A stretch of 64,000 nucleotides of DNA from Pontiella sp. (GCA_050290185.1 JBNKHE010000001.1:258713-322712), one strand, 5' to 3'. Positions 10,349-44,343 are shown, numbered from the stretch's first letter. Translations and numbers: made by a program. Notes: a model not told the origin generated them from the sequence alone.

Positions 10349-13300
10349 CTACTGCCGCTGAACGTCCAGCTTGAAGTAGCGGTTAGTGGACGAGCCTTCC
10401 ACGGGAATATTAAATTCAAGAGCAGATCCGCTTCCTGCCTGTCCGACACCCACCGGCTGCCAATCCGGCGTTGTCAGGTCGTCGCTGGCCCAGAGCTGGT
10501 AGTCGTGTCCAGGTACCGAATTCGAAACGGTCAGGGTCAGGTTGGAGCCACTAACCAGCGCATGATCCGCAATGAAGTATTCATCCGATGAAATCACCGC
10601 CGAGGGCACAGCATTGGTCTCGTTGGAATTGCCGCTTTCCTCGCCGGCGTTCACGGCGCTGACCACATAGTAGAAGCAGGTCCCGGCACTTAGCCCAGAG
10701 GTATCGATATAGGTCACCGCAACCACGTTCGAGGCGACGGTCGCGTAGGGCCCGCCGCTGATGATCGAGCGTTTGACATTGTAGCTGGCCGCGTTCGCGG
10801 ACGCGGTCCACGACAAGTCAATCTGGCTATCCGAAACCGCAGTCGCACCCAGCCCGGTCGGCACCGACGGTGCCGGTTCAGCATACGGGTAGCCATGGAA
10901 CTCCAATTCGGCCACGTTGCTGAAGCCGTTGTCGGGCGAAAGGAAGCGGACATAGCGGAATGCCGACGTATTGGAAATATCCACCGCCGTGAACACACCG
11001 GAGACCGGTAGCGCCGACACCGTGTACAGCGTGACGGCATCGCTGAAGTCGGATTGGTTCGCGCCCTGAAAAACGCCGCCGACCATGCGCGATTCAAATC
11101 CGGAGCGCGGACAATATTTGACCTGCGCGATGACGTTGCTGGTGCCGGCACCGAAATCCAGCCCGACCCAAGCCCCATTGCCGACGGGGGCGTCGAAGAA
11201 CGTGCCAAGGTTTCCGTCGAACACCTTGTCGATCGTGTCGCCCGAATCGCCCCATGAACCCGACGTGCCGATGACCGAGCCCGCAAGCATGGGGAAGTCC
11301 AGCGTCGTCTCGGCGCTGTTCAGCGTTTCACTGCCGTCGACCACGGCGCTGACCACGTAGTAGTATCGCGTCTCCGAAGCACCGGCATCCAGGTAATCGG
11401 GCGATGTGGTGCTGCCGATCACGCTGTAGGGGCCGCCGCTGACGCTGGAACGCCGGACGACATAATTCGTGGCTCCCGGTACGGTGTTCCATCCGAGTTG
11501 CACATCGCCGGCCGCATCTTCGGCCACGAGATCCGTTGGCCGGGTACGCAGCATGCTGACACCCGCAACCGTTTGGACGACCGGACGGATGGTTCCATCG
11601 GGATTGAAATCCATGTATTCAACGCAGACGCTGCGGCGGAAGGAACTCCCGCCCACGCCGTCCAACGACAGCGTAGCGTTGTGATAGAAGAAATACCATT
11701 GGTTGCGAACCTCAATGATCCCGGGATGGATTGTGTAGCTGTTCTGCGCGGTACCCGTAATCAGGCCCTGATAGGTCCATGGGCCGGTGACGGCCGGGGC
11801 GGTGGCGTAGGCGGTCCGTTCCGAGCCTCCATTCACCGAGTCGATGGAGGGGTAGGCCATATAGTAGAGATCATTGCGCTTGAACAACCACGGCCCTTCG
11901 GTGTAGTCTGGCAGCGAGAAGCTTTGGATCGCGCCATCGAGTTCCGTCAGGTTGTCCTTGAGCTTCGCAAGATAGAAGGTTCCATGGCCCCACCCCAGCC
12001 AGTATGAACCATCGTCGTCCTTGAAAATAGTCGGATCGATGTCGTCCCACGCATCCCCCCCGGTGGTCATGCCGTCGGTCACCAGCGCCGAGCCGCGCGC
12101 ATCCACGAACGGCCCGGTCGGTGAACTGGACACGGCCACCCCGACGGCCTTGCCGCCCTGCGTGGCATCGTGCTGCACCGTGGCATACAGAAAGTACTGC
12201 CCGTTCCTCTCGATCACCTGCGATGCCCACGCCGTGGCGCTGCCGTCCGACCACGAGAAATCACCGGGATTCATGATGGGCCCGTGCGCCGTCCAGTCGA
12301 GCAGGTTGGTGCTAGAATAACAGAGCCACTCGGTCATTTCGTAAAAATTTGTACCCTCGTCATGTCCGGTATACACGTAGACCGTGTCTCCGACCACCAG
12401 CGGCGCGGGGTCCGCCGTAAAGGCATCGCGGAAGATCGGGTTCTTGCCGGCAACGGATGGAACGTCCCCGGATATGGAAACCTGATCGAAAACCGCCGTG
12501 CACAGCTGCGAACTGTTGTGGGCGGTCACGGCCAGACCGACATACACCGTGCTGCCCATACTGATCGTCTGTGGAGATCCCTGCGTCAGCCAGTTCGTTC
12601 CATCCACCGAGCGGTAGGCTGTAAAGCTGTCACCACTCCGCACCAGCTTGATCCAGTATGGTGCGCCGAGGCCCGTAGTTCCGCTGTTATCGAAACCAGT
12701 GTCCCCGTCCGAGACCGAACGCCACTGGAAGGAAAGTCCGTTCCCGGGCGTCACACCAACCAGCGCATTGGGTGCACCATCCGCAAGACTACTTCGGATC
12801 ATGATTCCGCCCTTCGCCCACGGATCAGTGTTGTCCTGGCTAACGATGTGTGCCACGAGCGAACAATCGCCGGTGACGGCCGTGTAGACATAGCGGAAAG
12901 CGTCCGAATTGCCCCATATATCCGCCCCCGATCCGGTAACAGTAAACGTTCCTCCGGTGATGGAAGCGCTGCCCAAAAGCCCCACCGAGCCGATATCCAC
13001 CGACTGCCAGGGATCGGGCTGGCTGGCCGGCCCAGGATCAACGGGGCCAACCTTGTCGAGCCCCAAGAAGGGAATGACGTATTCCGCCAGAAAGAGCGCA
13101 TCCGACGGGCCGTGGTCCCCTCCGATATCTGCCCAGGCATCGAGCAGCGAAGCGCCGTTTTCATCCTTCCAGACCCGGTGCGTCCATTGGTTGGTAATGC
13201 CCGCGATGGACTCCGTGGTCGTGTATGTGGGATCGGGGTCTAAACCAAGAACATTGCTCCACTGCATGATGGACTCGAGATGATTGGTGTAGTTGACAAG

Positions 13301-13948
13301 GTCATCCGCTGTGCCATGCCAAAGCTGGACGCGGGGGCGCGGTCCCGAATATTCTGGATAACAGGCCCGTGCGAGATCTCCCCATTCCTGCACGGTATGT
13401 TCAATCGGAGCCCAAGCTCCTCCGATTGGCACGCCCGCCAACGCGACGCCAGCCTTGAAAATATCGGGATAAACCCCGAGCATCGCTTGTGTCATCATGC
13501 CGCCGCAGGAGTCTCCGGTCACATAAACCCGGTCCGCATTCGCTTGATAGGTGCTGATCGCATACTGCACCATCTGGGCAATTGCATGGGTCTCGCCGCC
13601 GCCATCGTGCGTGAGGGACTGCGTCGAGCCATAGTCCCAACAGTCAGAACTTCGCTCCGGAACGACCATAATGAAGCCATACTGATCCGCTGCCGCCACA
13701 ATGCCGCCCCACTCCGCCTGGGCAAAAACGCTGCTGGCAGTTCCTCCCCAATAATGCAGGAGCACCAGAATCGGAGGGTTTTCAACCACGGAGTCCGGCA
13801 CGTAGACATACATGCTTACATTCGTCGGTACGCCGCTGGCTCCCCATTCGGGAACCAGTTCGAGCGAGGCCGCCTTGGCTGGCAACACCTCAAGGAGTCC
13901 GAAACACGCGGAGAGCAGGAAACAGCTAAGAACGCTTTTTTTGTACAT
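10349..13948 (-). CDS. Modular enzyme: PHB-depolymerase-type CE1 esterase + ConA-like module + GH43 + FN3 + CBM62-like + FN3 + conserved C-terminal domain
   Basis: Esterase: MYVYVP, GDSCGG, QLWHGTAD. GH43: TADPAPLV, WASQV, IDP, EGPW. Start moved to ATG 13948 (MYKKSVLSCFLL signal peptide, RBS-like GAGGG). Confidence 0.88.
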   Translation of the reverse strand: MYKKSVLSCFLLSACFGLLEVLPAKAASLELVPEWGASGVPTNVSMYVYVPDSVVENPPILVLLHYWGGTASSVFAQAEWGGIVAAADQYGFIMVVPERSSDCWDYGSTQSLTHDGGGETHAIAQMVQYAISTYQANADRVYVTGDSCGGMMTQAMLGVYPDIFKAGVALAGVPIGGAWAPIEHTVQEWGDLARACYPEYSGPRPRVQLWHGTADDLVNYTNHLESIMQWSNVLGLDPDPTYTTTESIAGITNQWTHRVWKDENGASLLDAWADIGGDHGPSDALFLAEYVIPFLGLDKVGPVDPGPASQPDPWQSVDIGSVGLLGSASITGGTFTVTGSGADIWGNSDAFRYVYTAVTGDCSLVAHIVSQDNTDPWAKGGIMIRSSLADGAPNALVGVTPGNGLSFQWRSVSDGDTGFDNSGTTGLGAPYWIKLVRSGDSFTAYRSVDGTNWLTQGSPQTISMGSTVYVGLAVTAHNSSQLCTAVFDQVSISGDVPSVAGKNPIFRDAFTADPAPLVVGDTVYVYTGHDEGTNFYEMTEWLCYSSTNLLDWTAHGPIMNPGDFSWSDGSATAWASQVIERNGQYFLYATVQHDATQGGKAVGVAVSSSPTGPFVDARGSALVTDGMTTGGDAWDDIDPTIFKDDDGSYWLGWGHGTFYLAKLKDNLTELDGAIQSFSLPDYTEGPWLFKRNDLYYMAYPSIDSVNGGSERTAYATAPAVTGPWTYQGLITGTAQNSYTIHPGIIEVRNQWYFFYHNATLSLDGVGGSSFRRSVCVEYMDFNPDGTIRPVVQTVAGVSMLRTRPTDLVAEDAAGDVQLGWNTVPGATNYVVRRSSVSGGPYSVIGSTTSPDYLDAGASETRYYYVVSAVVDGSETLNSAETTLDFPMLAGSVIGTSGSWGDSGDTIDKVFDGNLGTFFDAPVGNGAWVGLDFGAGTSNVIAQVKYCPRSGFESRMVGGVFQGANQSDFSDAVTLYTVSALPVSGVFTAVDISNTSAFRYVRFLSPDNGFSNVAELEFHGYPYAEPAPSVPTGLGATAVSDSQIDLSWTASANAASYNVKRSIISGGPYATVASNVVAVTYIDTSGLSAGTCFYYVVSAVNAGEESGNSNETNAVPSAVISSDEYFIADHALVSGSNLTLTVSNSVPGHDYQLWASDDLTTPDWQPVGVGQAGSGSALEFNIPVEGSSTNRYFKLDVQRQ

Positions 13949-13965
13949 ACGAAACCCTCTGGAGC

Positions 13966-16900
13966 TTATTTCACCAATCGGTAGAACACTTGCACTTCGG
14001 ATGTCGGAGGAAGCATGACCTGCCAGTTGGTGCCGACGAGCTGCGGTACCGGCGACACGACATCTTCCCAAATGCCGGACACAAGATTCGTGCAAGCCTG
14101 CACCGTGAAGCCTGCGCTTTCCTGCGGCCATGAAAAGGTCAGATTCGTTCCATCCATCGTCAATTCCATCTGCGGAAAGGAGACCATCCCCAGCGGATAG
14201 CCATAAAACTCCAGCTCCGCCACATTGCCGAAGCCGTTGTCGGGCGACAGAAAGCGGACATAACGGAAGGCCGATGTGTTGGCGATGTTCAACGATGTAA
14301 ATACGCCCGATGCGGGTTGCGCCGACACGGTGCCCAGTGTAACGGCGTCGCTGAAGTCCGGCTGGTTAGCCCCTTGGAATACGCCACCCACCATCCGAGA
14401 CTCAAATGTAGCGCGCGGACAATATTTGATCTGCGTGATGGAACAGGCCGATCCATCGCCAAAATCCAATCCAACCCAGGCCCCGTTTCCGATGGGCGCG
14501 TCGAAGAAAGTGTCCAGATCGGTATCGAAAACCTTGTCGATCGTGGCTCCCGATCCACCCCACGAACCCGGTGTACCAATAATGTCGCCCTCGAGCTTTG
14601 AAAAGCCCACCGTCGCTTCGGGACCATTGCCCGACTCGCTGCCGCCGACCATGGCGCTGACCACGTAGTAATACCCATCCCTTACGGATGCGACGGTATC
14701 GGTGTACGTAGTGGTAGCAATGCCGGAGGCGACCGTCGTGTAGGGGCCACCACTGGTGGTCGAGCGTTTGACATTATAGCTGGTAGCACTGTCGTGCGCA
14801 TTCCATTCGAGGCCGATCTGGGTATCGGACAGAGCGACTGCCGTTGCCTCCAACGACGTGAGAGGCCAGCCCGGCAGCTCTACGTTGTCGAACGTGGCCT
14901 TGCACAAGGACGAGTTGTTGTGGCTACAGACTGCCAGGCCGATATATACAGTGGACGACATCGTCAGTGTCGTGGAACCAAGCTGCGTCCAGGCAGTGCC
15001 GTTCGAGGAACGGTATCCTGTGAACGTGTCACCGCTGCGCACCAGCTTGACCCAGTACGGCGCGGCCAGTCCGCCCGCATTGGCGAAGTCACAACCGCCA
15101 CCGGCGACCGCACGGTATTGCCATGAAATGCCGTTGCCCGGCGTTACGGCGACCAAGGTGTTCACCGCATTGGCATCCAGGCTCTCGCGCACCATGACCC
15201 CGGCCTTAGCCCACGAATCGCTGTATTGCATCGAGGCCACTCGCGCAACGACGGAGAAATCCCCGCTGTTGGTCACGTAGACGAAACGGAAGGCGTCTTC
15301 CGAATTCCAGATATCGCCTCCGGATCCGTTCACGGTGAACGTGCCGTTAGTAACCCCCGCGCTACCCGTCAACCCCACGGAACCAACATCCTTCGCCAGC
15401 CAAGGGGAAGGTACGCTTGAAATCGGAGTCGTACCGACCCGCGTAGAGTCGTCGCTCTCGCCGGCGGTATTGCTCAACGCCGAAACGACATAGTAATAGG
15501 TTGTGCGACCGACCACCGCGTTATCGGTGTAATTCGTCCCTGCCACATTGGCGATGGTGGTGTAGGGACCACCAAAGGAGGCGGCTCGTTTCACGTTGTA
15601 GCTGGAAGCGTTGGCGGAAGCCGACCAACTCAATGCTACCTGCTCGATGCCCGGCGTAGCCGCCAGACCGGTCGGAGCACTCACTGGAACAGGCTCCCAT
15701 CCCGGAGCCGTCACGTGGTCAAATGTTGCCGAGCACAAGGTATAGTCGTTGTGGCTGGTGAGCGCCAAGCCAACATGCACGGTGGAGGCCATGGCGAGCG
15801 TCGTGCTGCCGGTCTGGGTCCAACTTGTTCCATCCGAAGAAACGTATCCGGTGAACGTATTGCCACTACGCACCAGCTTGACCCAGTACGGAGCCGACGG
15901 CCCGGCCGTAGAACTGGAGCTGGTCGAACCACCGGTACTCGAACGGAACTGCCATGCAGCGCCATTGCCCGGCGTGACGCCAATGAAAACGTTTTTAGCG
16001 TCCTCATCCAGACTCTCGCGTATCATCACGCCGGCCTTAGACCAGGAGCTGATATGGTTTTCCAGCGAAGCCACGCGGGCAACAATGGTGCAATCGCCCG
16101 TCGCGGTCACATGGACAAAACGGAAGGCATCGGACGACGCACCAATGTCCGCGCCGGAGCCGATGAGCGAGAACACACCGTTGGTGAAACCTGCACTGCC
16201 CGTCAAACCCACCGGGCCGACATCCTGCGCCAGCCAGGGCGAAAGCACATCAACCGATGGAACCACGCTGGCCGGAGCCGAATCGGCGCTCTCGCCACCA
16301 ATGTTCAGCGCAGACACCGTATAGTAATAGGTTGTTCCAGCGATCACTTCGGTATCGACATATTCCGTTCCCGGAACGTTAGCAACCGTAGTGTAAGGCC
16401 CGCCGCTGGTCGTGGCCCTGTTCACGTTGTAGCTGGTAGCATCCGCAGAAGCCGTCCACTCCAGCATCGCCCGTTCGGAACCGGGTGTTGCTGCCAGAGA
16501 GCCCGGCGCCAACGGAATTGAAACCGGCGAAACGGGCCCGGTGCATTGCCACCAGTTGACGTTGAACAGGTAGCCGCTGCCACCGGTAAACTTCAGATAT
16601 ACATCATGCACCCCGGTTGCACCACTGACCGTACAGGACCGGGTTGTCCACGTCTGCCAGCCACCGGTGCCCGTCACGGAGCACGTTCCAACCAGCGTCC
16701 CGGTCAGGCTGTCCAGACGGACCTCGATGTTTCCGCCACTGGTCCCCGACGCCACTCTGGCCTGGAAGTTGATCGCACCGGTGCCGAAATCAATGTTGCG
16801 GTAAACGGCGTAGTAGCCATTCTGGATCGAGCCGATGTCCTGGCCACCTTCGCTGCATGTTTCGCGCAAGGCTCCACCATATGGACCGTCGCGGTCCTCC

Positions 16901-17760
16901 GCTTCGATCTTCGAATAGGCGGATTGAATGCGCACGGGATCGGAAATACCCGCCGCATCGGCCATCTGGAGAAAGTTCCACATGGCCGGCGTCCAGGTGC
17001 TGCCGCCATCGTGATTGCCGCCCTTCACCGGCAGCCAGGCATGAGGAATATCGTTTGAAACGCAAAAGTTGTGCGTCGCCTCGCTGGTCCCGAACAGGCC
17101 GAGCCAGTCGGCATCCCCGCAAGAGATCAGCAGTAGCTTGAGCTTTTCCTTCGCTTCGGCGCCGCCATCGGGAAACAGGGTGGTGTCGCCGGGTTTGCTG
17201 GGGGCCGCCGAGGATGGGCTGATATAGCGATACGTGTCCAGATTGCCCAATCCTTCCCTGAAAGCCATGCCACCGCCCCATGAAAATCCGTAAATCCCCC
17301 GATGTTCCGCGCCGGGGCGAACCGAATAATTCGACTCCATGTAGGGAATAATCACATTGGAGATCTCGCGGTGGACCAATCCAAAATCATGTTCAATATC
17401 CGCATAATCCGGTGCCACAATAATGACTGGCCTGATCTTTCCCTGACCGATCAGGTTGTCCGCCACCGTATTCGCGGTAGCTCCCCAGGGGGCCATGATG
17501 CTGTATCCGTCGGAATCGATTCCATGAAAGGCGTATATCACGGAATATTCCTGCGCCGTTGTATACCCCGGCGGTGTGTAGACCTGCATGGTCCGGTTGG
17601 TCCCGGTCTCGGTCGAAAAATAGCTGATCGACTGGAGCTGTCCCGCCGGATATTGACCGCCTTGGTCGTATCCTGCCGGCGGCAGGACCGGAAAGGCCTG
17701 TCCCAACACCCACAGCGGAATGGCAAAAAGCCCCGCCATAATCAAAGTAGATTGTTTCAT
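13966..17760 (-). CDS. Modular CE1 feruloyl-esterase-like enzyme + CBM6 + FN3/ConA-like repeats + CBM62-like + C-terminal domain
   Basis: PPAGYDQ...SYFST...VYTPPGY, GFSWGG and WNFLQMAD resemble the XynZ FAE domain as recalled; CBM6 IEAED...TGGWQTW...NVNWW; ends VFYRLVK. Confidence 0.87.
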   Translation of the reverse strand: MKQSTLIMAGLFAIPLWVLGQAFPVLPPAGYDQGGQYPAGQLQSISYFSTETGTNRTMQVYTPPGYTTAQEYSVIYAFHGIDSDGYSIMAPWGATANTVADNLIGQGKIRPVIIVAPDYADIEHDFGLVHREISNVIIPYMESNYSVRPGAEHRGIYGFSWGGGMAFREGLGNLDTYRYISPSSAAPSKPGDTTLFPDGGAEAKEKLKLLLISCGDADWLGLFGTSEATHNFCVSNDIPHAWLPVKGGNHDGGSTWTPAMWNFLQMADAAGISDPVRIQSAYSKIEAEDRDGPYGGALRETCSEGGQDIGSIQNGYYAVYRNIDFGTGAINFQARVASGTSGGNIEVRLDSLTGTLVGTCSVTGTGGWQTWTTRSCTVSGATGVHDVYLKFTGGSGYLFNVNWWQCTGPVSPVSIPLAPGSLAATPGSERAMLEWTASADATSYNVNRATTSGGPYTTVANVPGTEYVDTEVIAGTTYYYTVSALNIGGESADSAPASVVPSVDVLSPWLAQDVGPVGLTGSAGFTNGVFSLIGSGADIGASSDAFRFVHVTATGDCTIVARVASLENHISSWSKAGVMIRESLDEDAKNVFIGVTPGNGAAWQFRSSTGGSTSSSSTAGPSAPYWVKLVRSGNTFTGYVSSDGTSWTQTGSTTLAMASTVHVGLALTSHNDYTLCSATFDHVTAPGWEPVPVSAPTGLAATPGIEQVALSWSASANASSYNVKRAASFGGPYTTIANVAGTNYTDNAVVGRTTYYYVVSALSNTAGESDDSTRVGTTPISSVPSPWLAKDVGSVGLTGSAGVTNGTFTVNGSGGDIWNSEDAFRFVYVTNSGDFSVVARVASMQYSDSWAKAGVMVRESLDANAVNTLVAVTPGNGISWQYRAVAGGGCDFANAGGLAAPYWVKLVRSGDTFTGYRSSNGTAWTQLGSTTLTMSSTVYIGLAVCSHNNSSLCKATFDNVELPGWPLTSLEATAVALSDTQIGLEWNAHDSATSYNVKRSTTSGGPYTTVASGIATTTYTDTVASVRDGYYYVVSAMVGGSESGNGPEATVGFSKLEGDIIGTPGSWGGSGATIDKVFDTDLDTFFDAPIGNGAWVGLDFGDGSACSITQIKYCPRATFESRMVGGVFQGANQPDFSDAVTLGTVSAQPASGVFTSLNIANTSAFRYVRFLSPDNGFGNVAELEFYGYPLGMVSFPQMELTMDGTNLTFSWPQESAGFTVQACTNLVSGIWEDVVSPVPQLVGTNWQVMLPPTSEVQVFYRLVK

Positions 17761-17794
17761 TCTAGTTTCCTTTTTTTAGTTATTCCCTAAAACC

Positions 17795-20700
17795 CTACTG
17801 CCGTTGGACATCCAGCTTGAAGTAGCGATTGGTTGATATTCCATCAATCGGGATGCTGAACTCCAGATTCGATCCCGTGCCCGCCTGACCAACGCCTACA
17901 AGTTGCCAATCAGGAGCCAGCAGGCTGTCGGTTGCCAGGATCCAATAGTCATGGCCAGGTATTGAGTTTGAAACCGTCATGCTCATGTTGGCTCCGTCGA
18001 TGATTGCATGATCCGCAATGAAGTATTCGTTCGACGAAACCACCGCCGATGGAACGGCATTGGTCTCGTCGGAATTGCCGCTTTCGCCATCGGTGTTCAC
18101 GGCGCTGACCACATAGTAGTAACGGGTTCCGGCACTGAGTCCGGAGGCATCGCTGTAGCTGGTCGAAACCACATTCGAAACAACGGTTTCATACGGTGAG
18201 CCGCTGGTGGTCGAGCGTTTGACGTTGTAGCTGTCCGCACCGGCAGATGCCGCCCACGACAGGTCGATCCGCGTGTCGGAAACCGCAACCGCGCCAAGGT
18301 CGGCCGGAGCAGCCGGCGGCGGGACGAATCCCGAAATCTGGTCGAACGTCGCGGCACATAGTGCCGCGTTGTTGTGGGCGGTCACTGCAAGTCCGACATA
18401 GACCGTGCTTCCCATGCCGATCGTCTGCGACGTGCCCTGCTGCGTCCAGCTGGTTCCATTCGCCGAACGATAGGCCGTGAAGGCGTTTCCGCTGCGCACC
18501 AGCTTGACCCAGTAGGGAGCGACGAGCCCCGTTGTACCGGCATTGTTGTTGCCGCAGCCGGCACCGTCGCTCGAACGCCACTGGAATGAGATGCCGTTGC
18601 CGGGCGTCACGCCGATCAGCGCATTGGCGGCATTCGCGGACAGGCTCTTGCGAATCATGATGCCGCCCTTTGCCCACGGATCGGTGTCGTCCACACTGGC
18701 AACGCGCGCCACCAGCGCGCAGTCGCCTGTTATTTCCGTATAGACAAAGCGGAATGCGTCGTCCGTATCCCAGATGTCGGTACCCGATCCGGAAATCGTG
18801 AACGTCCCGCCGCTGACGACCGCGCTCCCCGCAAGGCCTACCGAACCGACATCCTGCGTCGACCACGGATACGGAAGCACGAGCACCTCGGCGCTGCTGG
18901 CGCTCTCCCGGGAATCGGCGACGGTGCTGACGACGTAGCAATAGGACTCGCCGTCCACCACGCCGGTATCGCTGTAGCCCGAGGCCACTACGTTCGACGC
19001 AATGGTGTCATACGGCCCGCCACGCGTGGTGGAACGCTTGATGTTGTAGCCTGTCGCGCCATCGACGGCATTCCAGTCAAGGTCGATCCGGCTACCCGAA
19101 ACCGCCACGACACTCAAGCCGTCGGGAACGGGCACCGGCTCAATGGTTGAATAGCCGCAGAACTCAAGCTCGGCCACGTTGCCAAAGCCGTTGTCGGGCG
19201 AAAGGTAGCGGATATAGCGGAAGGTCGCGGATCCGGCAATATCCACCGATGTGAATGCGCCCGAGGCTGGCTGCGTCGCAATGGTGTAGAGCGTGACTGC
19301 GTCGCTGAAGTCGAGCTGGTTCGCCCCTTGGAAAATGCCGCCCACCATGCGCGACTCAAAACCGGAGCGCGGGCAATAGTTGATCCGCGCGACGACATTG
19401 CTTGAGCCGGAACCGAAATCCAGCCCGACCCATGCCCCGTTCCCGTTGGGTGCGTCGAAGAACGTGTTGAAATCGTTGTCGAACACCTTGTCAATGGTGT
19501 TGCCAGATCCACCCCACGAACCCGCCGTTCCAATGATGGAACCTGAAAGTTCGGGATAGTCCAACGCTGCCTCGGCGCTGTCGAGGCCTTCCACACCGCC
19601 GGCCACGGCACTGACCACGTAGAAATATTCGATTCCCGATAGTCCGATGTCGGTGTAGTTGGTGGTGGCCACACCGGTCGCGATGGTCGTATACGGACCG
19701 CCGCTGGCGGTGGAGCGCTTGACATTATAGCTGGAGGCGCCGGTCACGGCGTTCCAGTTCAGGGTCGCCATGTTCGGACCGGCCACCATGGCGCTCACTC
19801 CCGAAGGGAACGCCGGAGTGGACGGAGAAACCACCGCCCATTTCTGCTCGGCGGCTCCCGAGTAGACCACATCTTCCAACAGCGGCGCATCGGCCACCGA
19901 AGGTTGGAAACATTTTCCGCCGCCGGCGGAAAACACCTGATAGAACCCGTCGCCCGTCGGCATAATAATGAAGCAACGGTCACCGCTGGTCCCCCACCAG
20001 GGTCCCAGATGCAGAGGACCGCCAAAAGTGGTCCAGCTATCGCCGGCGCCAACAGAAGTAATCTTGTACTGGCCGCCGCCGATGTTCTGCAGCGTCCATT
20101 GCTCATTTGCAACGCCCGTGTAATCTCCGACCACAACATTGTTGTCGACATCAACATCCATCGCCTGGACCGTCTTGGCATTCAGAAACTTGTAGGTGCC
20201 GTTGGCAATCGGTCCCGAGGACTGAACCGAAAGCTCGATCCAGTTCAGGTTGAACCCGCCCTCTAAAACGTTGATGCGCAGGATCTGTTGACCGGGGCGC
20301 AGGAACACGCTCTTGGCAACCGTCGTCCAGGACTGGTCACCCGCGGTAGCAGGCAAGGTCCAGTCTCCCGAGATATCCTCACCGTACGCAAGCACCTGCA
20401 CACTGCCGCCGCTTGCGCCCGCCACGCGCAGGCGCAGGTTGTACATCCCCGCTGCGCTCACCTTGGCCGTATACTCCAGCCATTCGCCGGCCTCTGTCGA
20501 AGTCACGTTGTACCCGCCGCCCGCGTCCGACGCCGCTTCGATATCCACGCCTTCCCCGGTTCGATACTGTCCCCCGCTGTTCGAGGTGTCCAGATCGTGA
20601 TAAGCCACACCCTCTCCGCCATTGTCAAAGTCTTCGGCCTGGATGCGCAGGGTGCCGCTCAAGGTGTTGTTTACATAGCCGGGCGTCGTCCATGGATATC

Positions 20701-21766
20701 CGCCGTTTTCGAACACGCTGCGCGCAACCGGCCAGGTGCCGTAATCCGGCGTCCAGGACAGCCCGGAATTATTCACCCGGTCCACATAGGCCGCCGGCGT
20801 CGTGATTTTATCGGATACGCCCCAGGGCGGAACACACTGGAAGGTGAGCCACGACACGTTCATGCGCTCCAGGTTCGCCACGGCCTCGACATCCAGGCCT
20901 CCGTTCTCGCCGCCCCATGTGCCGGCGGCGAACTCGGTCATGAAACAGGGATACCCTGCGGCAATGATATTGGCCACGGCAATTGCGTTGGCATCCGCGC
21001 CCGCATAGCCATGGAATCCAACCGCCTCGTTGGTCCACACCACGTCGGCGGAACCGAACACAGACGTGTTGAAGGCATGTATATCCGTCAAGGCGGCATC
21101 CGCCCCTCCCGAGTCGCCTAGCACCGCGTAGGTGAAAAGCAACACCGGCGTGTCCGGTGCATTCGCCCGGATGGTGTTGTAGGCGTCAATCTCCATATCG
21201 ACCGCCCCGGTAGGCGTGGCGGTCGGCGAAGAATAGGGAGGCCCCCAGGCGACCGGTTCGTTCTGGACTTCAAAAACGACATGCGTTTCATCGGCGTAGC
21301 GGGCGGCGTAGAAAGCCCAGAAGTCGTGAACCCACTGGGCGTTGTAGTTACCGTTGTTGGCCCCGTTGCCAATGGTCATAACCAGGTACATGCCCGCATC
21401 CCGCGTATACTGAACAATCTTGTCCACCTCGGTCGCATTGTAGCCCGGTGCCGTGCTGCCTGCATCGGGATAGTTTCCATCGAAGACCTCAGCGTACAGA
21501 TGCACCGCGTTGAATCCCATGTTGGTCATGGCCGCAATCTCCGCTTCGGGCACCGCCGAAGTCCATTCCGTGGAGGTGAAGGGGCCGCGCAACAACTGGC
21601 CGTTGTCGGCCACAAACGTCGTGCGCTCCGCATTGAGGTGCGGCCGGCCCCGTGCAACGCCATAGGCTGCAGGTGCAAGCATGACCTGCAACACAAGCAA
21701 CGCGAGCAAGGACAACGTGAAAAAAGGCAACCTGCCACGATCTCTTTCAAGCGGAATGGATTTCAT
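17795..21766 (-). CDS. GH5_34-like arabinoxylanase + CBM6 + CBM13-like + FN3 + CBM62-like + FN3 + ConA-like + FN3 + conserved C-terminal domain
   Basis: RGRPHLNAERTTFVADNG, NEPVAWGPPYS and CFMTE match the recalled CtXyl5A sequence. Start moved to ATG 21766 (RBS GAGG); the longer ORF overlaps the upstream gene. Confidence 0.88.
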   Translation of the reverse strand: MKSIPLERDRGRLPFFTLSLLALLVLQVMLAPAAYGVARGRPHLNAERTTFVADNGQLLRGPFTSTEWTSAVPEAEIAAMTNMGFNAVHLYAEVFDGNYPDAGSTAPGYNATEVDKIVQYTRDAGMYLVMTIGNGANNGNYNAQWVHDFWAFYAARYADETHVVFEVQNEPVAWGPPYSSPTATPTGAVDMEIDAYNTIRANAPDTPVLLFTYAVLGDSGGADAALTDIHAFNTSVFGSADVVWTNEAVGFHGYAGADANAIAVANIIAAGYPCFMTEFAAGTWGGENGGLDVEAVANLERMNVSWLTFQCVPPWGVSDKITTPAAYVDRVNNSGLSWTPDYGTWPVARSVFENGGYPWTTPGYVNNTLSGTLRIQAEDFDNGGEGVAYHDLDTSNSGGQYRTGEGVDIEAASDAGGGYNVTSTEAGEWLEYTAKVSAAGMYNLRLRVAGASGGSVQVLAYGEDISGDWTLPATAGDQSWTTVAKSVFLRPGQQILRINVLEGGFNLNWIELSVQSSGPIANGTYKFLNAKTVQAMDVDVDNNVVVGDYTGVANEQWTLQNIGGGQYKITSVGAGDSWTTFGGPLHLGPWWGTSGDRCFIIMPTGDGFYQVFSAGGGKCFQPSVADAPLLEDVVYSGAAEQKWAVVSPSTPAFPSGVSAMVAGPNMATLNWNAVTGASSYNVKRSTASGGPYTTIATGVATTNYTDIGLSGIEYFYVVSAVAGGVEGLDSAEAALDYPELSGSIIGTAGSWGGSGNTIDKVFDNDFNTFFDAPNGNGAWVGLDFGSGSSNVVARINYCPRSGFESRMVGGIFQGANQLDFSDAVTLYTIATQPASGAFTSVDIAGSATFRYIRYLSPDNGFGNVAELEFCGYSTIEPVPVPDGLSVVAVSGSRIDLDWNAVDGATGYNIKRSTTRGGPYDTIASNVVASGYSDTGVVDGESYCYVVSTVADSRESASSAEVLVLPYPWSTQDVGSVGLAGSAVVSGGTFTISGSGTDIWDTDDAFRFVYTEITGDCALVARVASVDDTDPWAKGGIMIRKSLSANAANALIGVTPGNGISFQWRSSDGAGCGNNNAGTTGLVAPYWVKLVRSGNAFTAYRSANGTSWTQQGTSQTIGMGSTVYVGLAVTAHNNAALCAATFDQISGFVPPPAAPADLGAVAVSDTRIDLSWAASAGADSYNVKRSTTSGSPYETVVSNVVSTSYSDASGLSAGTRYYYVVSAVNTDGESGNSDETNAVPSAVVSSNEYFIADHAIIDGANMSMTVSNSIPGHDYWILATDSLLAPDWQLVGVGQAGTGSNLEFSIPIDGISTNRYFKLDVQRQ

Positions 21767-21996
21767 TAATCTTCTACCTCTTTTGTTCAGAATCCAACGA
21801 CATGCAATCCGGGTCTGCGCATCCCCTTCGCGACGGTACGTCCACCCCGAAAGGTACTTTGAACCACTTTGCATGGTTGCATCTCTATGCAGGATCAGAC
21901 AATGGGTGTTTTTGAACGAAAAATACGGATTCATGAAACCCAACATCCGGATCAGCACGGCACAGGATGGATTTGCATGAACAGCCAGCCGAATCC

Positions 21997-24909: not shown

Positions 24910-24933
24910 TTTATCAGCCTTTTTCGCCGGCTC

Positions 24934-27618: not shown

Positions 27619-27700
27619 TCTTGCTCCTCTGTTCTTTTGCACGCTGCTATTTTCAAACACGGCGTCGTGACAACTGATCCGGGCCTGAAACAGCCCCGAT

Positions 27701-27734
27701 TACTATAGGCGCCGTTCGAGTATTTTTCCGGCCA
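27701..27734 (-). promoter_or_regulatory. Putative ECF-sigma promoter, copy 2
   Basis: Minus strand reads TGGCCG GAAAAATACTCGAAC GGCGCCT ATAGTA, just downstream of a terminator and ~85 bp before the GH31 start. Confidence 0.7.
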
Positions 27735-27767
27735 AGAAATAGTGTCGCTCTCTTCCGCATTGGGCTG

Positions 27768-27806
27768 ATAAAGAAACAGGCTGTTTCCTTGTTTAAAGAA
27801 ACAGCC
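27768..27806 (-). terminator. Rho-independent terminator after GH27
   Basis: 9-bp stem GGCTGTTTC/GAAACAGCC (27779-27787 and 27798-27806), followed on the minus strand by TGTTTCTTTAT. Confidence 0.6.
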
Positions 27807-27836
27807 CGTTCCTGCTGCGTATTCCGACTTAGAAGC

Positions 27837-29411: not shown

Positions 29412-29426
29412 AATCTCCCCTCCTAC

Positions 29427-32192: not shown

Positions 32193-32231
32193 TGGAGCTC
32201 CTGTAGTGATACACTTTGTTCACGACGGTCA

Positions 32232-33236: not shown

Positions 33237-33349
33237 CCTTATGATTCTGGTGTGAAAACTGATAGAAATTCACACGTTGATTTCTGCAAACGGAAATGCC
33301 CCCTTCACTTCCGCATAGGTTAAAGAGGGTACCGCATCTGGTCCTGTGC

Positions 33350-35747
<2,398 letters not shown>

Positions 35748-36016
35748 ATCCAGATTCCTTTGCGTCAGTGACTGAATGGCGATTGCGACATACAACATGC
35801 AACAAATAAAAATACCGCATGCGTTGAATTCATCAATCCCAGAAAATGAATGCAATATACCGACTGGTGAAACTCCCTTGCCGTCTGAGCTTTCGCGCAT
35901 GTCGGATGGCAAAGTCCTCGATTTCAATAACACGGAGCTGAAATTCAACAATCACAATACCCATGGCCGCGATCAAGGCGTATATACATACTATGTATTT
36001 TGGATTAGAGCCCTGC

Positions 36017-37351
36017 ATGAACAACAATAGACTTCAACTTTTGGCCCTAGCTTTCGGGGGGTTACTTTGCCTCTTTAGCGCCCATGCCCAGAATCCACTC
36101 GTCATGAATCAGTTTACGGCCGATCCGACGGCAAGAGTCTTTGACGGGAAAATCTATGTCTATCCCTCCCACGATATTTCCCCTCCTCCAGACGCTCGCG
36201 CGGACTGGTTCTGCATGGAAGACTACCATGTCTTCTCGTCGGAAAACCTGATGGACTGGACGGATCACGGCGTCATTGTCAGCCAGACCAACGTACCTTG
36301 GGTAGATGCATCGACCTACAGCATGTGGGCTCCGGATTGCGTGGAAAATGACGGCAAGTACTATTTCTATTTCCCCGCCAAGAACACGTCGGGTGAATTT
36401 TCCATCGGCGTGGCCATTTCGGAGACACCCTATGGCCCCTTCAAACCGGAATCCAAACCGATCGAGGGCGTACAGGGCATCGACCCGTGCGTATTCATCG
36501 ACACGGATGGCCAGGCCTACCTGTACTATTCCCTCGGCAAGATATTCGTGGCCAAACTGAAGAACAACATGCTGGAGCTGGATTCCGAACCGCAGGTGAT
36601 CGACAACCTGCCCACGCAAGGTCTTCTGGAGGGCCCCTTTGTCTTCGAGCACAACGGCATCTACTACTTGACCTATCCGCATGTGGAAAATGAAACCGAA
36701 CGGCTCGAATATGCCACCGGAAAAAGCCCGACGGGGCCCTTCAAACCCGAAGGCGTCATTCTGGACGAATCGTCCAGCGGCTGCTGGACGGTCCACCACT
36801 CCATTCTGGAATACAAAGACCAGTGGTATCTGTTTTACCACGACCGGGACCTCTCCCCGGAAGACGATAAACGGCGATCGATACGGGCCGACCGTCTGTT
36901 TTTCGAAACGGACGGCGACATCAAAAAGGTGATCCCCACCCTGCGCGGCATCGGAACAGCCGACGCCAAGTCCACGCTGCAGATCGACCGCTACAGCGAC
37001 ATCGGCAACAACGGCGCAACCGTAACATTCCTCGACAACGCAAACCGCCATGCGGGATGGAAAACAATTTTCTCTGCAAGCCGCTCCTGGATTCGCTTCA
37101 ACCGGGTCGACTTCGGGAACGCCGAATTAAAGTCGGTAAACATCCGCGCGCGTTCCCTAACGGGAGGAACCCTTGAAATCCGGCGCGACAAGAAAAACGG
37201 CCCCTTGATCGCGCAAGTTGAAATCGAAAAAGGGTCCGAATGGAAAACCGTGAAGGCACCCCTGCGCAGCGCCCCATCCGGCGTACATGATCTTTTCATT
37301 ACCCAGCGCCGCAAACAGGATGTCGAGCTCGACTGGATCCGCTTTGAATGA
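36017..37351 (+). CDS. GH43 xylosidase/arabinofuranosidase + C-terminal CBM6
   Basis: TADPTARVF, WAPD, IDP, EGPF; CBM6-like C-terminus (VDFG...GVHDL...LDWIRFE). Only + strand gene of the locus. Start at ATG 36017. Confidence 0.9.
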   Translation: MNNNRLQLLALAFGGLLCLFSAHAQNPLVMNQFTADPTARVFDGKIYVYPSHDISPPPDARADWFCMEDYHVFSSENLMDWTDHGVIVSQTNVPWVDASTYSMWAPDCVENDGKYYFYFPAKNTSGEFSIGVAISETPYGPFKPESKPIEGVQGIDPCVFIDTDGQAYLYYSLGKIFVAKLKNNMLELDSEPQVIDNLPTQGLLEGPFVFEHNGIYYLTYPHVENETERLEYATGKSPTGPFKPEGVILDESSSGCWTVHHSILEYKDQWYLFYHDRDLSPEDDKRRSIRADRLFFETDGDIKKVIPTLRGIGTADAKSTLQIDRYSDIGNNGATVTFLDNANRHAGWKTIFSASRSWIRFNRVDFGNAELKSVNIRARSLTGGTLEIRRDKKNGPLIAQVEIEKGSEWKTVKAPLRSAPSGVHDLFITQRRKQDVELDWIRFE

Positions 37352-37402
37352 TAGACGCGTGCTTCCCAGCCGCGTTACCGAGTGGGAACTCCGTTCCTGT
37401 GG

Positions 37403-37917
37403 CTACTGCCGATCTATATCCAGCTTGAAGTAGCGGTTGGTCGATACCCCATCAATCGCAACGCTGAAGTCCAAAGTTGAACCCGTACCTGCCTGTCCAA
37501 CGCCAACCGGCTGCCAGTCCGGTGTTGTCAGGCTGTCGGATGCCCATATCCAATAGGTATGGCCCGGCACCGAATTCGAGACCGCCAGATTCAAGTTGGT
37601 GCTATCGGCAATTGCATGATCCGCAATGAAATATTCGCCAGGTACAATGACCGCCGACGGAACGGCATTGGTCTCGCTCGAATCACTGCTTTCCCCTCCG
37701 GTATTTACGGCGCTGACCACATAGTAATAGCGGGTTCCGGCACTCAGTCCGGCGGTGTCGCTGTAACTGGTCGAAACCACGTTCGAACCCACGGTTTCAT
37801 ACAGTGCGCCACTGGTGATTGAACGTTTCACGTTGTAGCTGTCCGCACCGGCGGATGCCGTCCACGACAGGTCGATCCGGCTATCCGAAACCGCAACCGC
37901 TCCGAGTCCGGCCGGGG
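37403..37917. repeat. ~0.5 kb direct repeat (FN3 + C-terminal domain), copy A
   Basis: Aligns with 41068..41582 at offset 3665; 37728-37851 is identical to 41393-41516 (124 bp). More diverged copies start at 17795 and 10349. Confidence 0.85.
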
Positions 37918-40900
37918 CCGCCGGAGGCATCGGGTCCGGAGCAGCAAGCCCATAAAACTCGATTTCGGCAACATTGCAGAAACCATCTGTCGGTCCGTAG
38001 TAGCGCACATAGCGGTAGGCGCCGGCACCCGATATGGCGTTGGTCGTATATACACCTTCGGATGGAGCGGACCCCACGGTGTACAACGTAACCACATCGC
38101 TGCTGAAATCCGCCGTGCTGGAGGCTTGGAACACCCCGCCAACCATGCGTCCGGGGAATTGGGAACCTGAGCGCGGGGCAAAGCGAATTTCGGTTACAAC
38201 GGCGGTATCGCCCAGATCCAGCCCCGTCCAGCCGCCGGTGGCCAGATCGGAGTCGAAGAAAGTGGACAGGTTGCCATCGAATGCAGCATCCCGCGTGGTG
38301 GTGGGATCGCCACCCCATGAACCGGTAGTGCCGATGACGGTACCTGTGAGCACACGCTCGGTCAAGGTGGTGGCCTTGGCACTGTCGGCGCTCTCGCCGT
38401 CCGAGGAGACGGCGCTGACCACGTAGTAGTACGTCGTTCCGGCAGACACGCCGGTATCGCTGTAGTTCGTTGTGGCAACATTGGCAATCGTTGTGTACGG
38501 CCCTCCGCTACTGGTGGAGCGCTTCACGTTATAGCTGTCGGCACCATCGGATGTCGTCCAGACCAGGTCAACCTGGCTTACAGAAACCAGCGTAGCGGCC
38601 AGACCAGTCGGAGCCGCAAGGGGCCAGGGCGACAGGTAGGAGCCGGAAATCACTTCGCGGCCGATGCCGGGGCGCTGCCAGGCCACCGCGAGGTTGTCGC
38701 CCCATCCGCCTTCCTTGTGCCGGACTTCGATGTAGTAGCGCTGTCCGCCCGTCAATGCGATCGCCGCCGACTGCTGCTGGGCGTACTTCGTCCACTCGCG
38801 CGAATCCGTCCAGTCCGGCACGGACGCGATCTTCACCGCATTCGCCGGATTGTCGTCCGTGCTCAGCCACAATTCGCTGTTGTCGTCGCTGGCGATCCAG
38901 AACGTGTAGTTGACGCTGTACGATGGATGAAGATACCCGCGCACCCGGGTGCCATAATTGTCCGCGAAGTCCGTCGGGGCTTCAAATGAGGTGAGTTCCC
39001 CTGAGCCGGTGGGATGGTCGGGATAATTTGGATCCGACGTCAGGTCGCCGACCGACGACCCGCTGATCCCCTCCCACCACTCGCGCAGGATCGTGCCGCT
39101 ACCGCCTCCGGCGAGGGGCGTGATGTCGCCAGCTTCGCTGGAATAGCCCGACTCGTTGCCCGAACTGTCAACGGCCGTGACCGCGTAGTAATAGGTCGTG
39201 CCGTTGGTCACGGACGCATCAAGGTATTCCGAGATCGTGAGATGGTCAACGGGAAGCGAACCATTCAGCTTGCCGTAGCCCGAGCCGGACGTCGTCGAGC
39301 GGTAGACGTTGTAGCCGACCAGATCGGACTCGCCGTTGTCGTTCCAGTCGACCCAGACCTTCCCTTCGGCCGGCGTAGCCACCAGACCGGTCGGTACCGC
39401 CGGCGGCGTTACATCCCGGAACAGCGCAGCGTCCGGGATCAACGCCTTGGCAAAGCCCGGCCCTTCCCAGCGAACTTCAAGGCCTTCGCCCATGTTTTTT
39501 TCAAACATGGCGACCCGGATTGCATGCTTGCCGGCCTCTAGGGCAACTGTGCCGGAGACGTCCCCCATGCCGTGGAGACCGTCGTTGTCCACCACTTCCG
39601 GCGGACCGACGTACAACTTGCTGCCATCGTCCGAACTCGAGTAGAACGTGTAGGTTCCATTCGTCGGGATGTCGATGTAGCCTTCGAACACATACGCGAA
39701 ACCGTCGGCGCTGCGCGATGCGTAGGCATTGATGTCGAAATTTGCGCACAACCCGCTTGCGACCGGCGTGAGCGCGTCGAAATCCGGCACCGCATACCAC
39801 ATGCCCTCGTAGTACTTGTAGGTCAATCCGTTCACCGCTTCCGCTGGAGCCGGATGGCTTGGAATGGCGTTGCCGGGCGCGGACCAGGTGTAGTCGGCCC
39901 ACCACTCGAACGAATCCCGTCCGCAGGCAATCTCCGGATAGGTCCAGTTGGCCGGCCCCCCGGACAGGTTGCCGATCACCTCGCCGTTCATGCCGGTCAT
40001 CCAGCTGATGTTGCCCGCGGCATCGAAGAGCGTCTTTGTGGTGATGCCCCATCCGTCCGTTGTTGCCCGGCGAAGCCCCTGGTCCTCATCCATGGTATTC
40101 CACGAGCCCTCCGTGATCATCACCGGATGCACGTCCGAGCAGAGTTTGAAATCGTTGTTGAAGTTGTCGATGATCGTCGCCGGGTCGTTGTTTCCGATGG
40201 GATACCAGTGTCCCGAGTAGCCGATGTTGGTTCCTGCAACGGGATAATCGACGAAATTCTTCAACTTGGCCTGCCAAATCAGCCCCGGAACCCAGACCAC
40301 ATTGGTAGCCCCGGTGCTCCGTATCGCATCGACGATATCCTGCATGTAGTCCTGCATCGCAACGGCATGGGCGGTGGTTTCCGTTCCCCAGTCGCCGTTG
40401 CCCAGAACGGATTCGATGGTTACCGGTTCATTGAGAATCTCAAACATCACGTTGTCCGCATTCTTGATGCCGGGATAGGCCGCGATCCGCGCCCAATAGT
40501 CGATCAGGTTCTGCTTGTGCTGTGCGCCCATCAGTTCGCCCTCGAACGGCACGCTTCCGATAAGGACCACGTAAAGCCCGCGCGAGCGGCAGTAGTCGAT
40601 GTACGGTATATACAGATTGTCCCATGCCCGATCGGCCAGGTCGCCATCCACCAGCCCCGTATCGCCCCACCCGGCGCCGGGTGCCGCTATGCGCACGAAA
40701 CTTTGGTACCAGCCGTGGGTCCGGCCAAACAGCGGCGAAGTATCCGTCAACAGTTCGGCCTGCTGCTCCAGGATGCTGAGGGCTCCGGCGCAATCCGCCG
40801 CGGTATAGGTGGTCGGCTGGGTAAACAGGCGTTCGTTGAAATAAGAGTCGTTCGGTTGCATCCATCCGTGGAGAAGGACGTTTTTCCCGTTCGGATCCTT

Positions 40901-41023
40901 CAGGTAGCGGCCATCGACGTGCAAGGACGGCGTTTCCATTCCCACCCAGGCCTGCACCCCGGTGACAAACCCGGCAAAAATCGCCAGAGCCACCACAATG
41001 CGCTTGCATTGCATGTTCTTCAT
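37403..41023 (-). CDS. GH5 (subfamily 21-like) xylanase + 2x PA14 + FN3 repeats + CBM62-like + conserved C-terminal domain
   Basis: LHVDGRYLKDPNGKNVLLHG, FEILNEP, MITEG; PA14 motifs SSDDGSKL and ASDDNSELWLS; ends RYFKLDIDRQ. Confidence 0.85.
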   Translation of the reverse strand: MKNMQCKRIVVALAIFAGFVTGVQAWVGMETPSLHVDGRYLKDPNGKNVLLHGWMQPNDSYFNERLFTQPTTYTAADCAGALSILEQQAELLTDTSPLFGRTHGWYQSFVRIAAPGAGWGDTGLVDGDLADRAWDNLYIPYIDYCRSRGLYVVLIGSVPFEGELMGAQHKQNLIDYWARIAAYPGIKNADNVMFEILNEPVTIESVLGNGDWGTETTAHAVAMQDYMQDIVDAIRSTGATNVVWVPGLIWQAKLKNFVDYPVAGTNIGYSGHWYPIGNNDPATIIDNFNNDFKLCSDVHPVMITEGSWNTMDEDQGLRRATTDGWGITTKTLFDAAGNISWMTGMNGEVIGNLSGGPANWTYPEIACGRDSFEWWADYTWSAPGNAIPSHPAPAEAVNGLTYKYYEGMWYAVPDFDALTPVASGLCANFDINAYASRSADGFAYVFEGYIDIPTNGTYTFYSSSDDGSKLYVGPPEVVDNDGLHGMGDVSGTVALEAGKHAIRVAMFEKNMGEGLEVRWEGPGFAKALIPDAALFRDVTPPAVPTGLVATPAEGKVWVDWNDNGESDLVGYNVYRSTTSGSGYGKLNGSLPVDHLTISEYLDASVTNGTTYYYAVTAVDSSGNESGYSSEAGDITPLAGGGSGTILREWWEGISGSSVGDLTSDPNYPDHPTGSGELTSFEAPTDFADNYGTRVRGYLHPSYSVNYTFWIASDDNSELWLSTDDNPANAVKIASVPDWTDSREWTKYAQQQSAAIALTGGQRYYIEVRHKEGGWGDNLAVAWQRPGIGREVISGSYLSPWPLAAPTGLAATLVSVSQVDLVWTTSDGADSYNVKRSTSSGGPYTTIANVATTNYSDTGVSAGTTYYYVVSAVSSDGESADSAKATTLTERVLTGTVIGTTGSWGGDPTTTRDAAFDGNLSTFFDSDLATGGWTGLDLGDTAVVTEIRFAPRSGSQFPGRMVGGVFQASSTADFSSDVVTLYTVGSAPSEGVYTTNAISGAGAYRYVRYYGPTDGFCNVAEIEFYGLAAPDPMPPAAPAGLGAVAVSDSRIDLSWTASAGADSYNVKRSITSGALYETVGSNVVSTSYSDTAGLSAGTRYYYVVSAVNTGGESSDSSETNAVPSAVIVPGEYFIADHAIADSTNLNLAVSNSVPGHTYWIWASDSLTTPDWQPVGVGQAGTGSTLDFSVAIDGVSTNRYFKLDIDRQ

Positions 41024-41067
41024 TTCTTTCTCACTCTTCTCTGAGTCCGTACGTTTCGCGCCTATCC

Positions 41068-41582
41068 CTACTGCCGATCGACATCCAGCTTGAAGTAGCG
41101 ATTGGTCGATGCCCCATTAATGGCGACGTTGAAGTCCAAGCTTGAACCCGTACCTACCTGTCCAACGCCGACCGGCTGCCAGTCAGGAGTAATCAGATCC
41201 TCGGTGGCCCAGATTCGGTAGACATGGCCCGGCACCGAATTCGAGACCGTCAAATTCAGATTGGTGCCATCAGCGATTGCATGATCCGCAATGATATATT
41301 CGCCAGGCACAATGACCGCCGACGGAACGGCATTGGTCTCGCTCGAATCACCGCTTTCTCCTCCGGTGTTTACGGCGCTGACCACGTAGTAGTAGCGGGT
41401 TCCGGCACTCAGTCCGGCGGTGTCGCTGTAACTGGTCGAAACCACGTTCGAACCCACGGTTTCATACAGTGCGCCACTGGTGATTGAACGTTTCACGTTG
41501 TAGCTGTCCGCACCGGTGGAAGCGGTCCACGACAGGTCGATCCGGCTATCCGAAACCGCAACCGCACCGAGTCCGGCCGGAG
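41068..41582. repeat. ~0.5 kb direct repeat (FN3 + C-terminal domain), copy B
   Basis: Partner of 37403..37917; same alignment. Confidence 0.85.
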
Positions 41583-44277: not shown

Positions 44278-44343
44278 AGATCTACTCCAATAAATAATGA
44301 ACCGTGCCGCACGGCAGCCAAACATGAACCGCGTCCCGCCAGG

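Follow-up and report, generated by a model that had tools for sequence, protein, structure and literature searches.

Several described systems distinguish exported bacterial proteins by a small module at the C-terminus. The C-terminal domain (CTD) of type IX secretion system (T9SS) cargo (type A, Por_Secre_tail, PF18962/TIGR04183; type B, TIGR04131) is a small, terminal, all-beta domain on diverse Sec-exported proteins, has many carriers per genome, and shows low identity between copies. PEP-CTERM proteins of the PEP-CTERM/exosortase system end in a motif of about 24 residues with a membrane helix and a basic end. The monoderm wall-binding repeats (SLH, CWB2 and GW modules) are terminal, occur singly or in tandem, and hold enzymes and adhesins non-covalently, and dockerins are one small C-terminal module found across unrelated catalytic domains of one degradative system. 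Verrucomicrobiota, and among them the Kiritimatiellia, are described as prominent degraders of polysaccharides from algae and plants, and we know of no T9SS described in them. Here, a stretch of 64,000 nucleotides from Pontiella sp. (GCA_050290185.1, JBNKHE010000001.1:258713-322712) was analyzed, which is called the window in the following, and in which five exported enzymes end in related C-terminal modules, the tails. With high confidence, these tails are copies of an uncatalogued fn3-like domain of six strands at the end of exported proteins, and the 84-aa form of four of them is its Pontiella subtype.

A sequence-only reading of the window had proposed that four enzymes share the same 84-aa C-terminal module, that a fifth ends in a diverged version, and that the module is a lineage-specific sorting or surface-attachment domain similar to T9SS CTDs. 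The first two proposals were verified. All large genes of the region, and all window features given here, are on the minus strand, and a plus-strand reading of the tail intervals yielded a meaningless translation. Read on the minus strand, the intervals comprise exactly the last 84 codons of the genes (69 for the fifth) and the stop codon. Tail 1 (10349-10603) ends at the last residue of an esterase-GH43 protein (gene 10349-13948; hidden Markov model (HMM) E-value 5.3e-50), tail 2 (17795-18049) closes a GH5-CBM6/35 protein (gene 17795-21766; E 4.7e-50), tail 3 (37403-37657) a GH5-PA14 protein (gene 37403-41023; E 1.2e-51), and tail 4 (41068-41322) a GH30-type protein (gene 41068-44325; E 3.1e-51), the homologue of which is named glucuronoarabinoxylan endo-1,4-beta-xylanase by JGI. 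The Pfam matches of the window carriers were GH5 (Cellulase), GH43, the GH30 C-terminal domain and esterase families. The true starts of the first and the third gene of the region are probably at 13948 and 21766, with lengths that match the database proteins P0159 and P0163.

The four 84-aa tails have pairwise identities of 66-82% (70-73% to the first tail), and 47 of the 84 columns of their alignment are invariant. In a genome search, an HMM built from them recovered its own seeds at E-values of 1e-50 to 1e-52 and, in addition, two further copies at C2:290791-294102 (E 1.9e-30) and C4:42163-45099 (E 2.8e-29). All six matched copies end at the stop codon or one residue before it. The fifth tail (13966-14175) closes an esterase-CBM6-fn3-DUF1349 protein (gene 13966-17760) and is of the diverged, canonical "FYR" type, with the end VFYRLVK. 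It was not matched by the narrow four-tail HMM. However, it entered the iterated profile at E 6.7e-9, two residues from the C-terminus, among the six-frame open reading frames (ORFs) of the genome, and because it joined the iteration without having been a seed, it is a true distant relative of the other four.

This profile was iterated on the genome's own six-frame ORFs (3.58 Mb, 95.5% complete) and yielded 64 domains on 62 ORFs, with the core ..vLsW....G..Y.vq.tnL....W.pv...FYRv and the family consensus L.W..G..Y.vq..nL...W...FYRv. In the 84-aa tails, RYFKLD stands in place of the family's RFYRV. All five window tails fall into the family by profile match, terminal position and Sec-like N-terminus, and among the window ORFs the domain is found on these five only, as had been stated. 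As to position, 53 of the 64 copies lie at most 10 residues from the stop codon, and 57 at most 30. A control HMM made from the fn3 domains of the same proteins detected 28 domains in 14 ORFs, of which none is terminal and none overlaps a tail. The HMM scan thus placed the tail at the extreme C-terminus far more often than is seen for an ordinary domain such as fn3. Of the 53 terminal copies in this genome, 14 have Q and 11 have P as the last residue.

A Sec-like N-terminus was assigned to 42 of 53 large carriers compared with 484 of 1484 other large ORFs, by a crude rule for which the background rate of 33% is probably inflated; several of the carriers missed by the rule resemble signal-peptide proteins by eye. 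All five window carriers have Sec-like N-termini by eye and by the same rule, as had been claimed. This is not a distinguishing mark of tail-bearers, because every other enzyme of the window also has a Sec-type N-terminus.

No family of Pfam or NCBIfam matched any of 25 diverse tails at E ≤ 1. This includes the T9SS CTD models PF18962, TIGR04183 and TIGR04131 (0 of 25; none on the five window tails even at E ≤ 10), the fn3 family PF00041 (0 of 25), the Pfam families of carbohydrate-binding modules (CBMs), and the PEP-CTERM models TIGR02595 and PF07589. The sole match was F5_F8_type_C_2 on one of the 25 tails, at E 0.014 and below threshold. The expected absence of a match to a characterised CBM was thus confirmed, and the proposed likeness to T9SS CTDs failed at the level of sequence. 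No Pfam dockerin match was found on the tails either, and a cohesin-type partner was not searched for.

The earlier view of the module as a folded beta domain of about 80 aa was upheld by structure prediction. AlphaFold2, run on the alignment of the 25 tails, predicted six strands with a pLDDT of 84.1. A natural two-copy protein was predicted to fold into 6 + 6 strands (pLDDT 82), so that the short six-strand form characterises the family as a whole rather than the last copy alone. A wide structure search with VIA yielded many fn3/Ig domains at Z 6-7 (best 7.0, none at Z ≥ 8), a level that is common for this tool, and T9SS CTDs were absent among the 50 matches listed; Foldseek found nothing in the PDB at E ≤ 0.001. 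Both results say little against a likeness to T9SS CTDs. The tail is predicted to have the same general sandwich fold as fn3 domains (PF00041; bacterial Fn3-like linkers such as PDB 3mpc), but it has six predicted strands instead of seven and is not detectable as a member of PF00041. In a sequence profile search of the PDB, the tails resembled fn3 only weakly (E 0.005, the match being an engineered FN3), and with hhalign the tails were aligned to seven fn3 domains of the same proteins over strands B-C only (E 0.073, probability 0.8%). The motif L.W ... Y.v of strands B-C is common to tail and fn3 in both comparisons. In the hhalign register, the tail appears to end at the equivalent of fn3 strand F. 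The idea that the terminal copy alone lacks a seventh strand and needs a partner strand was weakened, since the internal copy of the two-copy protein is also six-stranded. With respect to self-association, a predicted complex of two tail copies had a score of 0.28, where the mark is 0.42. The class of fold is a known one; the domain itself is covered by no family model in Pfam or NCBIfam.

Only the 84-aa subtype is lineage-specific, being confined to Pontiella/Pontiellaceae, and the claim does not extend to the family. The subtype was present in 14 of 41 close relatives and in 15 proteins of a collection of 5.8 billion, all of which are multi-domain carbohydrate-active enzymes (CAZymes); the named matches are from Pontiella sp. 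and metagenome-assembled genomes of Pontiellaceae. The 15 proteins are very uniform, as 14 end with RQ and 12 have the exact loop SNSVPGH. The wider family was found in 87 of 201 Verrucomicrobiota genomes of at least 90% completeness. Its spread is patchy: some taxonomic families have it in every genome (17/17, 7/7 and 6/6), and others in none (0/32 and 0/17). In a library of 1.84 billion proteins, 40,792 representatives matched at E ≤ 0.001, and the neighbours in the ESM Atlas are Verrucomicrobiota clusters.

Outside this genome, the domain also occurs in tandem. All of the 150 best-scoring library proteins, in a ranking that favours multi-copy proteins, contain arrays of 2-13 copies, and in 139 of the 150 the last copy lies at most 12 residues from the C-terminus. 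The N-terminal parts of the array proteins are giant subtilases or cadherin, Big_9, MBG or YDG adhesins, and the repeats are invisible to Pfam. Internal and terminal copies have one consensus (mean 34.9 and 43.7 bits, respectively). Their endings differ: the chain stops 4-5 residues past FYR in 91 of 126 terminal copies, proline is found at that spot in 60 of 126 terminal compared with 32 of 300 internal copies, and it is the final residue of 86 of 139 library proteins.

The cargo was surveyed with Pfam for 40 full-length carriers of this genome. The hydrolases, lyases and esterases among the carriers contain GH5, GH127, PL4, alginate lyase, and GDSL and SASA esterase domains; peptidases are represented by two S8 proteins, an M60 and an M11 protein. 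Further carriers are a purple acid phosphatase, an arylsulfotransferase, a CotH/LTD protein, adhesin-like proteins with cadherin, FG-GAP or RCC1 repeats, an MtrC-like multihaem cytochrome, and many LamG proteins. In the window, the tail-bearers are large multi-modular enzymes with CBM6/35, PA14 or LamG-type modules, and the tail-less enzymes are mostly GH2, GH3, GH27, GH31, GH43, GH95 and small esterases. The proposal that the tail marks polymer-attacking enzymes is therefore consistent with the split inside the window, but not with the proteases, the phosphatase, the arylsulfotransferase, the cytochrome and the adhesins that carry it elsewhere in the genome, nor with a large GH5 enzyme of the window that has no tail.

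A connection to a known C-terminal sorting signal was found within the same genome, which has two exosortase matches and five PEP-CTERM proteins. None of the five carries a tail, and two of them are N-terminally homologous to tail carriers (E 1.8e-24 and 1.6e-15). Homologous N-terminal modules thus bear either PEP-CTERM or the tail, so that the tail stands where a known sorting signal is otherwise found at the C-terminus. Both are C-terminal marks of exported proteins, but the tail folds as a soluble domain and has no hydrophobic helix. At one locus (L088, C1:643565-644746), a PEP-CTERM LamG protein adjoins a homologous, FYR-tailed LamG protein, with 31.8% identity over 286 aa. Across the genomes, which were compared by hand, an exosortase is present in 86 of 87 tail-positive and in 57 of 114 tail-negative ones; because the genomes are related, this association is a lead only.

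The genomic neighbourhood of the tail genes was analyzed to a distance of 6 kb. The enriched gene families were extracytoplasmic function (ECF) sigma factors, Ser/Thr kinases, CAZymes and LamG proteins; four of the five ECF sigma and seven of the nine Ser/Thr kinase members of the genome lie within this distance of a tail gene, including a pair in the window. The latter (3237-6123) closes the enzyme locus on its downstream side; its ECF sigma factor (PF07638) is encoded at 5521-6123 and its Ser/Thr kinase, of 769 aa, at 3237-5546. The ECF sigma/kinase pairs are probably regulators of tail-bearing loci. As had been stated, no export or attachment machinery was found in the window. A search of the genome for Slam (SlipAM) was also negative, which is a weak result as no control gave a match. 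The genome holds four full secretins, a search for which the control was valid, and a tail gene is the last gene in two of the four secretin operons. At the first (L099, C4:274142-285355), PilM, PilN, two further genes and the secretin are followed by a 1905-aa S8 peptidase with a tail. At the second (L100, C11:76527-88745), the order is secretin, T2SS-E, T2SS-F, PilM-like, pseudopilin and a 448-aa TSP3 protein with a tail. The first arrangement recurs in one relative only (G028, L101). A secretin as dedicated partner, which the two operons had suggested, was dropped, as the arrangement is kept in 1 of 16 relatives, with five stretches ended by the contig.

We tentatively prefer, with somewhat less than even confidence, the reading that the tail is a localisation module that holds exported proteins at the cell surface, and not a cleaved export signal of the T9SS type. 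Non-covalent retention at the surface is the best fit to the following findings: the tail is placed strictly at the protein end, its exported cargo is diverse, tandem arrays continue up to the C-terminus, internal copies are equivalent to terminal ones, and tail and PEP-CTERM alternate. In particular, the likeness of internal and terminal copies in consensus and in six-strand architecture speaks for docking rather than for an export signal. The proposed sorting or surface-attachment domain has accordingly kept its outline as a terminal beta domain on diverse exported cargo, and has lost its restriction to one lineage and to polymer-degrading enzymes; sorting or anchoring itself is still inferred. 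After Sec export, the folded tail, as a single copy here and as a tandem array in other lineages, would attach non-covalently to a component of the envelope, which might be lipopolysaccharide, a protein of the outer membrane or the exopolymer made by the cell itself. In this way, adhesins, proteases and large endo-acting enzymes would be retained on the cell, and the tail-less, mostly exo-acting enzymes would be active in the periplasm. The four secretin systems would be the obvious candidates for the route across the outer membrane. The working analogy for such docking are the SLH, CWB2 and GW modules, which have the same tandem, terminal layout; unlike them, the tail belongs to diderm hosts, and no relation in sequence or fold is expected. 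The tail also resembles dockerins in its placement on unrelated catalytic domains.

Several observations weigh against a localisation module at the surface. Eleven of the 64 copies in this genome are not terminal, and together with the tandem arrays elsewhere this partly agrees with a frequently internal module, which had been named in advance as evidence against a sorting role. The signal-peptide rule is coarse, as mentioned above. No recurrent outer-membrane or other membrane partner was found in the 6-kb neighbourhoods of the tail genes. A tail gene follows in only 1 of 16 related secretin loci, 5 of the 16 stretches having ended at a contig edge. Exosortase genes are common and the genomes compared are related, so that the association of exosortase with the tail may be no more than a matter of lifestyle. 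The conserved positions of the family (L, W, G, Y, L, W, FYR) resemble the core of a beta-sandwich, so that no family-wide binding surface is evident. Lastly, a 970-aa multi-modular GH5-CBM35-ricin-LamG enzyme of the window has no tail.

The alternative that survives best, a rather doubtful possibility in our judgement, is that the tail is a passive structural end-cap or stalk, which is terminal only because modules were added or duplicated at the 3' ends of genes. The generic fn3/Ig sandwich, with its best Z of 7.0 and no Foldseek match, would suit such a cap, as would the core-like conserved residues and the arrays, which resemble the stalk domains of adhesins. The window provides a further argument for it, as its copies spread within a larger duplicated cassette. 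The region that the four enzymes have in common exceeds the 84-aa tail: a genuine fn3 domain (PF00041), verified by Pfam and by alignment, lies directly upstream of tail 1 (10604-10876), tail 2 (18050-18322), tail 3 (37658-37930) and tail 4 (41323-41595), and fn3 and tail together (about 170-175 aa) are shared at 71-90% identity. The longest shared alignments reach 586 aa at 56-67% identity. In the adjacent GH5-PA14 and GH30 genes, the final 175 codons (37403-37930 and 41068-41595) are 90.5% identical at the nucleotide level, compared with about 48% amino-acid identity of the parts upstream of the cassette, which indicates recent copying or gene conversion of the cassette. The 84-aa form has thus spread between neighbouring enzymes within a larger fn3-tail cassette. 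The other paralogue pairs have about 70% amino-acid identity although their third codon positions are near saturation (47-66%), and the tail is therefore under purifying selection.

Other results are difficult to reconcile with a passive cap. Spacer domains usually lie between other domains, but the tail is the very last element in 53 of 64 cases, compared with none of the 28 fn3 domains of the same genome, and the arrays reach the final residues in 139 of 150 proteins. The ending is specific for terminal copies, and in the 84-aa subtype the final residues are nearly invariant. The alternation with PEP-CTERM on homologous N-terminal modules also speaks against a mere cap.

It is unlikely that the tail is a signal for translocation across the outer membrane, i.e., an analogue of the T9SS CTD in the Planctomycetes-Verrucomicrobia-Chlamydiae (PVC) group, with an unknown translocon and possible later removal. 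The layout is indeed that of T9SS cargo, with a Sec signal, a terminal beta domain of about 70-80 aa, diverse cargo and dozens of paralogues per genome. The chain has a fixed end after the last strand, often a terminal proline that is mostly missing from internal copies, the final residues of the 84-aa subtype hardly vary, and two secretin operons are closed by tail genes. However, one copy suffices for a signal, and arrays of up to 13 copies as well as internal copies with the same consensus are found instead; with 11 of 64 copies non-terminal here and arrays of 2-13 elsewhere, the tail family is not a single copy at the protein end, as a T9SS CTD is. None of the 25 tails matched the T9SS CTD models, the adjacency to secretins is seen in 1 of 16 relatives only, and the recurrent neighbours are regulators and enzymes only. 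The T9SS parts SprA_N, GldM and Por_Secre_tail gave no match in the genome, a weak negative because none of 14 control genomes gave a match either, and other T9SS components were not searched.

A more speculative and distinctly improbable proposal is that Verrucomicrobiota have a surface-display pathway independent of T9SS, with the FYR tail as its address tag. An envelope receptor would read the exposed last strand and the fixed ending of the six-stranded domain, which would thereby determine the exported enzymes, proteases and adhesins that remain on the cell, and subtypes such as the 84-aa form of Pontiella would address whole sets of enzymes to one site. It is very improbable that the tail is a CBM that targets enzymes to their polysaccharide substrate: the window copies do stand on CAZymes beside CBM6/35, PA14 and LamG-type modules, the subtype has the conserved loop SNSVPGH, and a small beta-sandwich is the usual CBM fold, but no CBM family matched at E ≤ 1, known CBMs are to our knowledge not confined to the last residues of proteins, and members of the family are also found at the end of adhesin-like proteins, peptidases, a multihaem cytochrome, an arylsulfotransferase and a phosphatase. 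With cargo of such diversity, the general function cannot be that of a substrate-specific CBM.

About 2% of the gene-sized ORFs in this genome terminate in the domain, which is also present in 40,792 protein clusters, and so widespread a domain without a family model represents an annotation gap. In the parts of the literature covered by the search, including passages of PMC11685898, PMC13668718 and PMC5148204, no description of the domain was found, and the placement of enzymes on or outside the cells of Verrucomicrobiota was not addressed. In the Kiritimatiella genome paper, Sec, Tat and a type II system are the only ones named. If the tail is a true localisation tag, the surface proteome of these bacteria would be predictable from sequence, and the tail might be a handle for protein display on them. 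If it is a structural cap only, a family model would still be deserved and would end the annotation of these tails as "unknown". The window adds the Pontiella subtype, the fn3-tail cassette, the fn3 position control and the comparison of terminal and internal copies, as well as the PEP-CTERM and exosortase leads and a largely negative test of secretin partners.

Further observations were made in this genome. A 50-kb cluster (C9:139858-189984) contains nine tail genes, among them cadherin/FG-GAP, arylsulfotransferase and M60 peptidase genes. Several of its genes have their own tail subtype (..SGLRYTL.GCTNLVEG.W..), and tail subtypes tend to track gene clusters. Two small proteins of 125 and 128 aa (C8:29032-29406 and C8:32138-32521) are made up of a signal peptide and a single tail-like domain, extended at the C-terminus by polyproline, and both are encoded a few kb from an exosortase-like gene (C8:22252-22659).

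The window itself contains a hemicellulose-type degradation locus of about 24 co-oriented genes for exported CAZymes (121-54775), with seven GH43, three GH5, two GH31, one each of GH2, GH3, GH27, GH30 and GH95, and several esterases. No SusC/D-type genes were found among its scanned ORFs. The locus is adjoined by a gene (56847-63977) for an exported protein of 2376 aa without a tail, which contains SpvB, TcdB_toxin_midN, FG-GAP and RHS-repeat domains and has a Tc/Rhs-type, polymorphic-toxin-like architecture.

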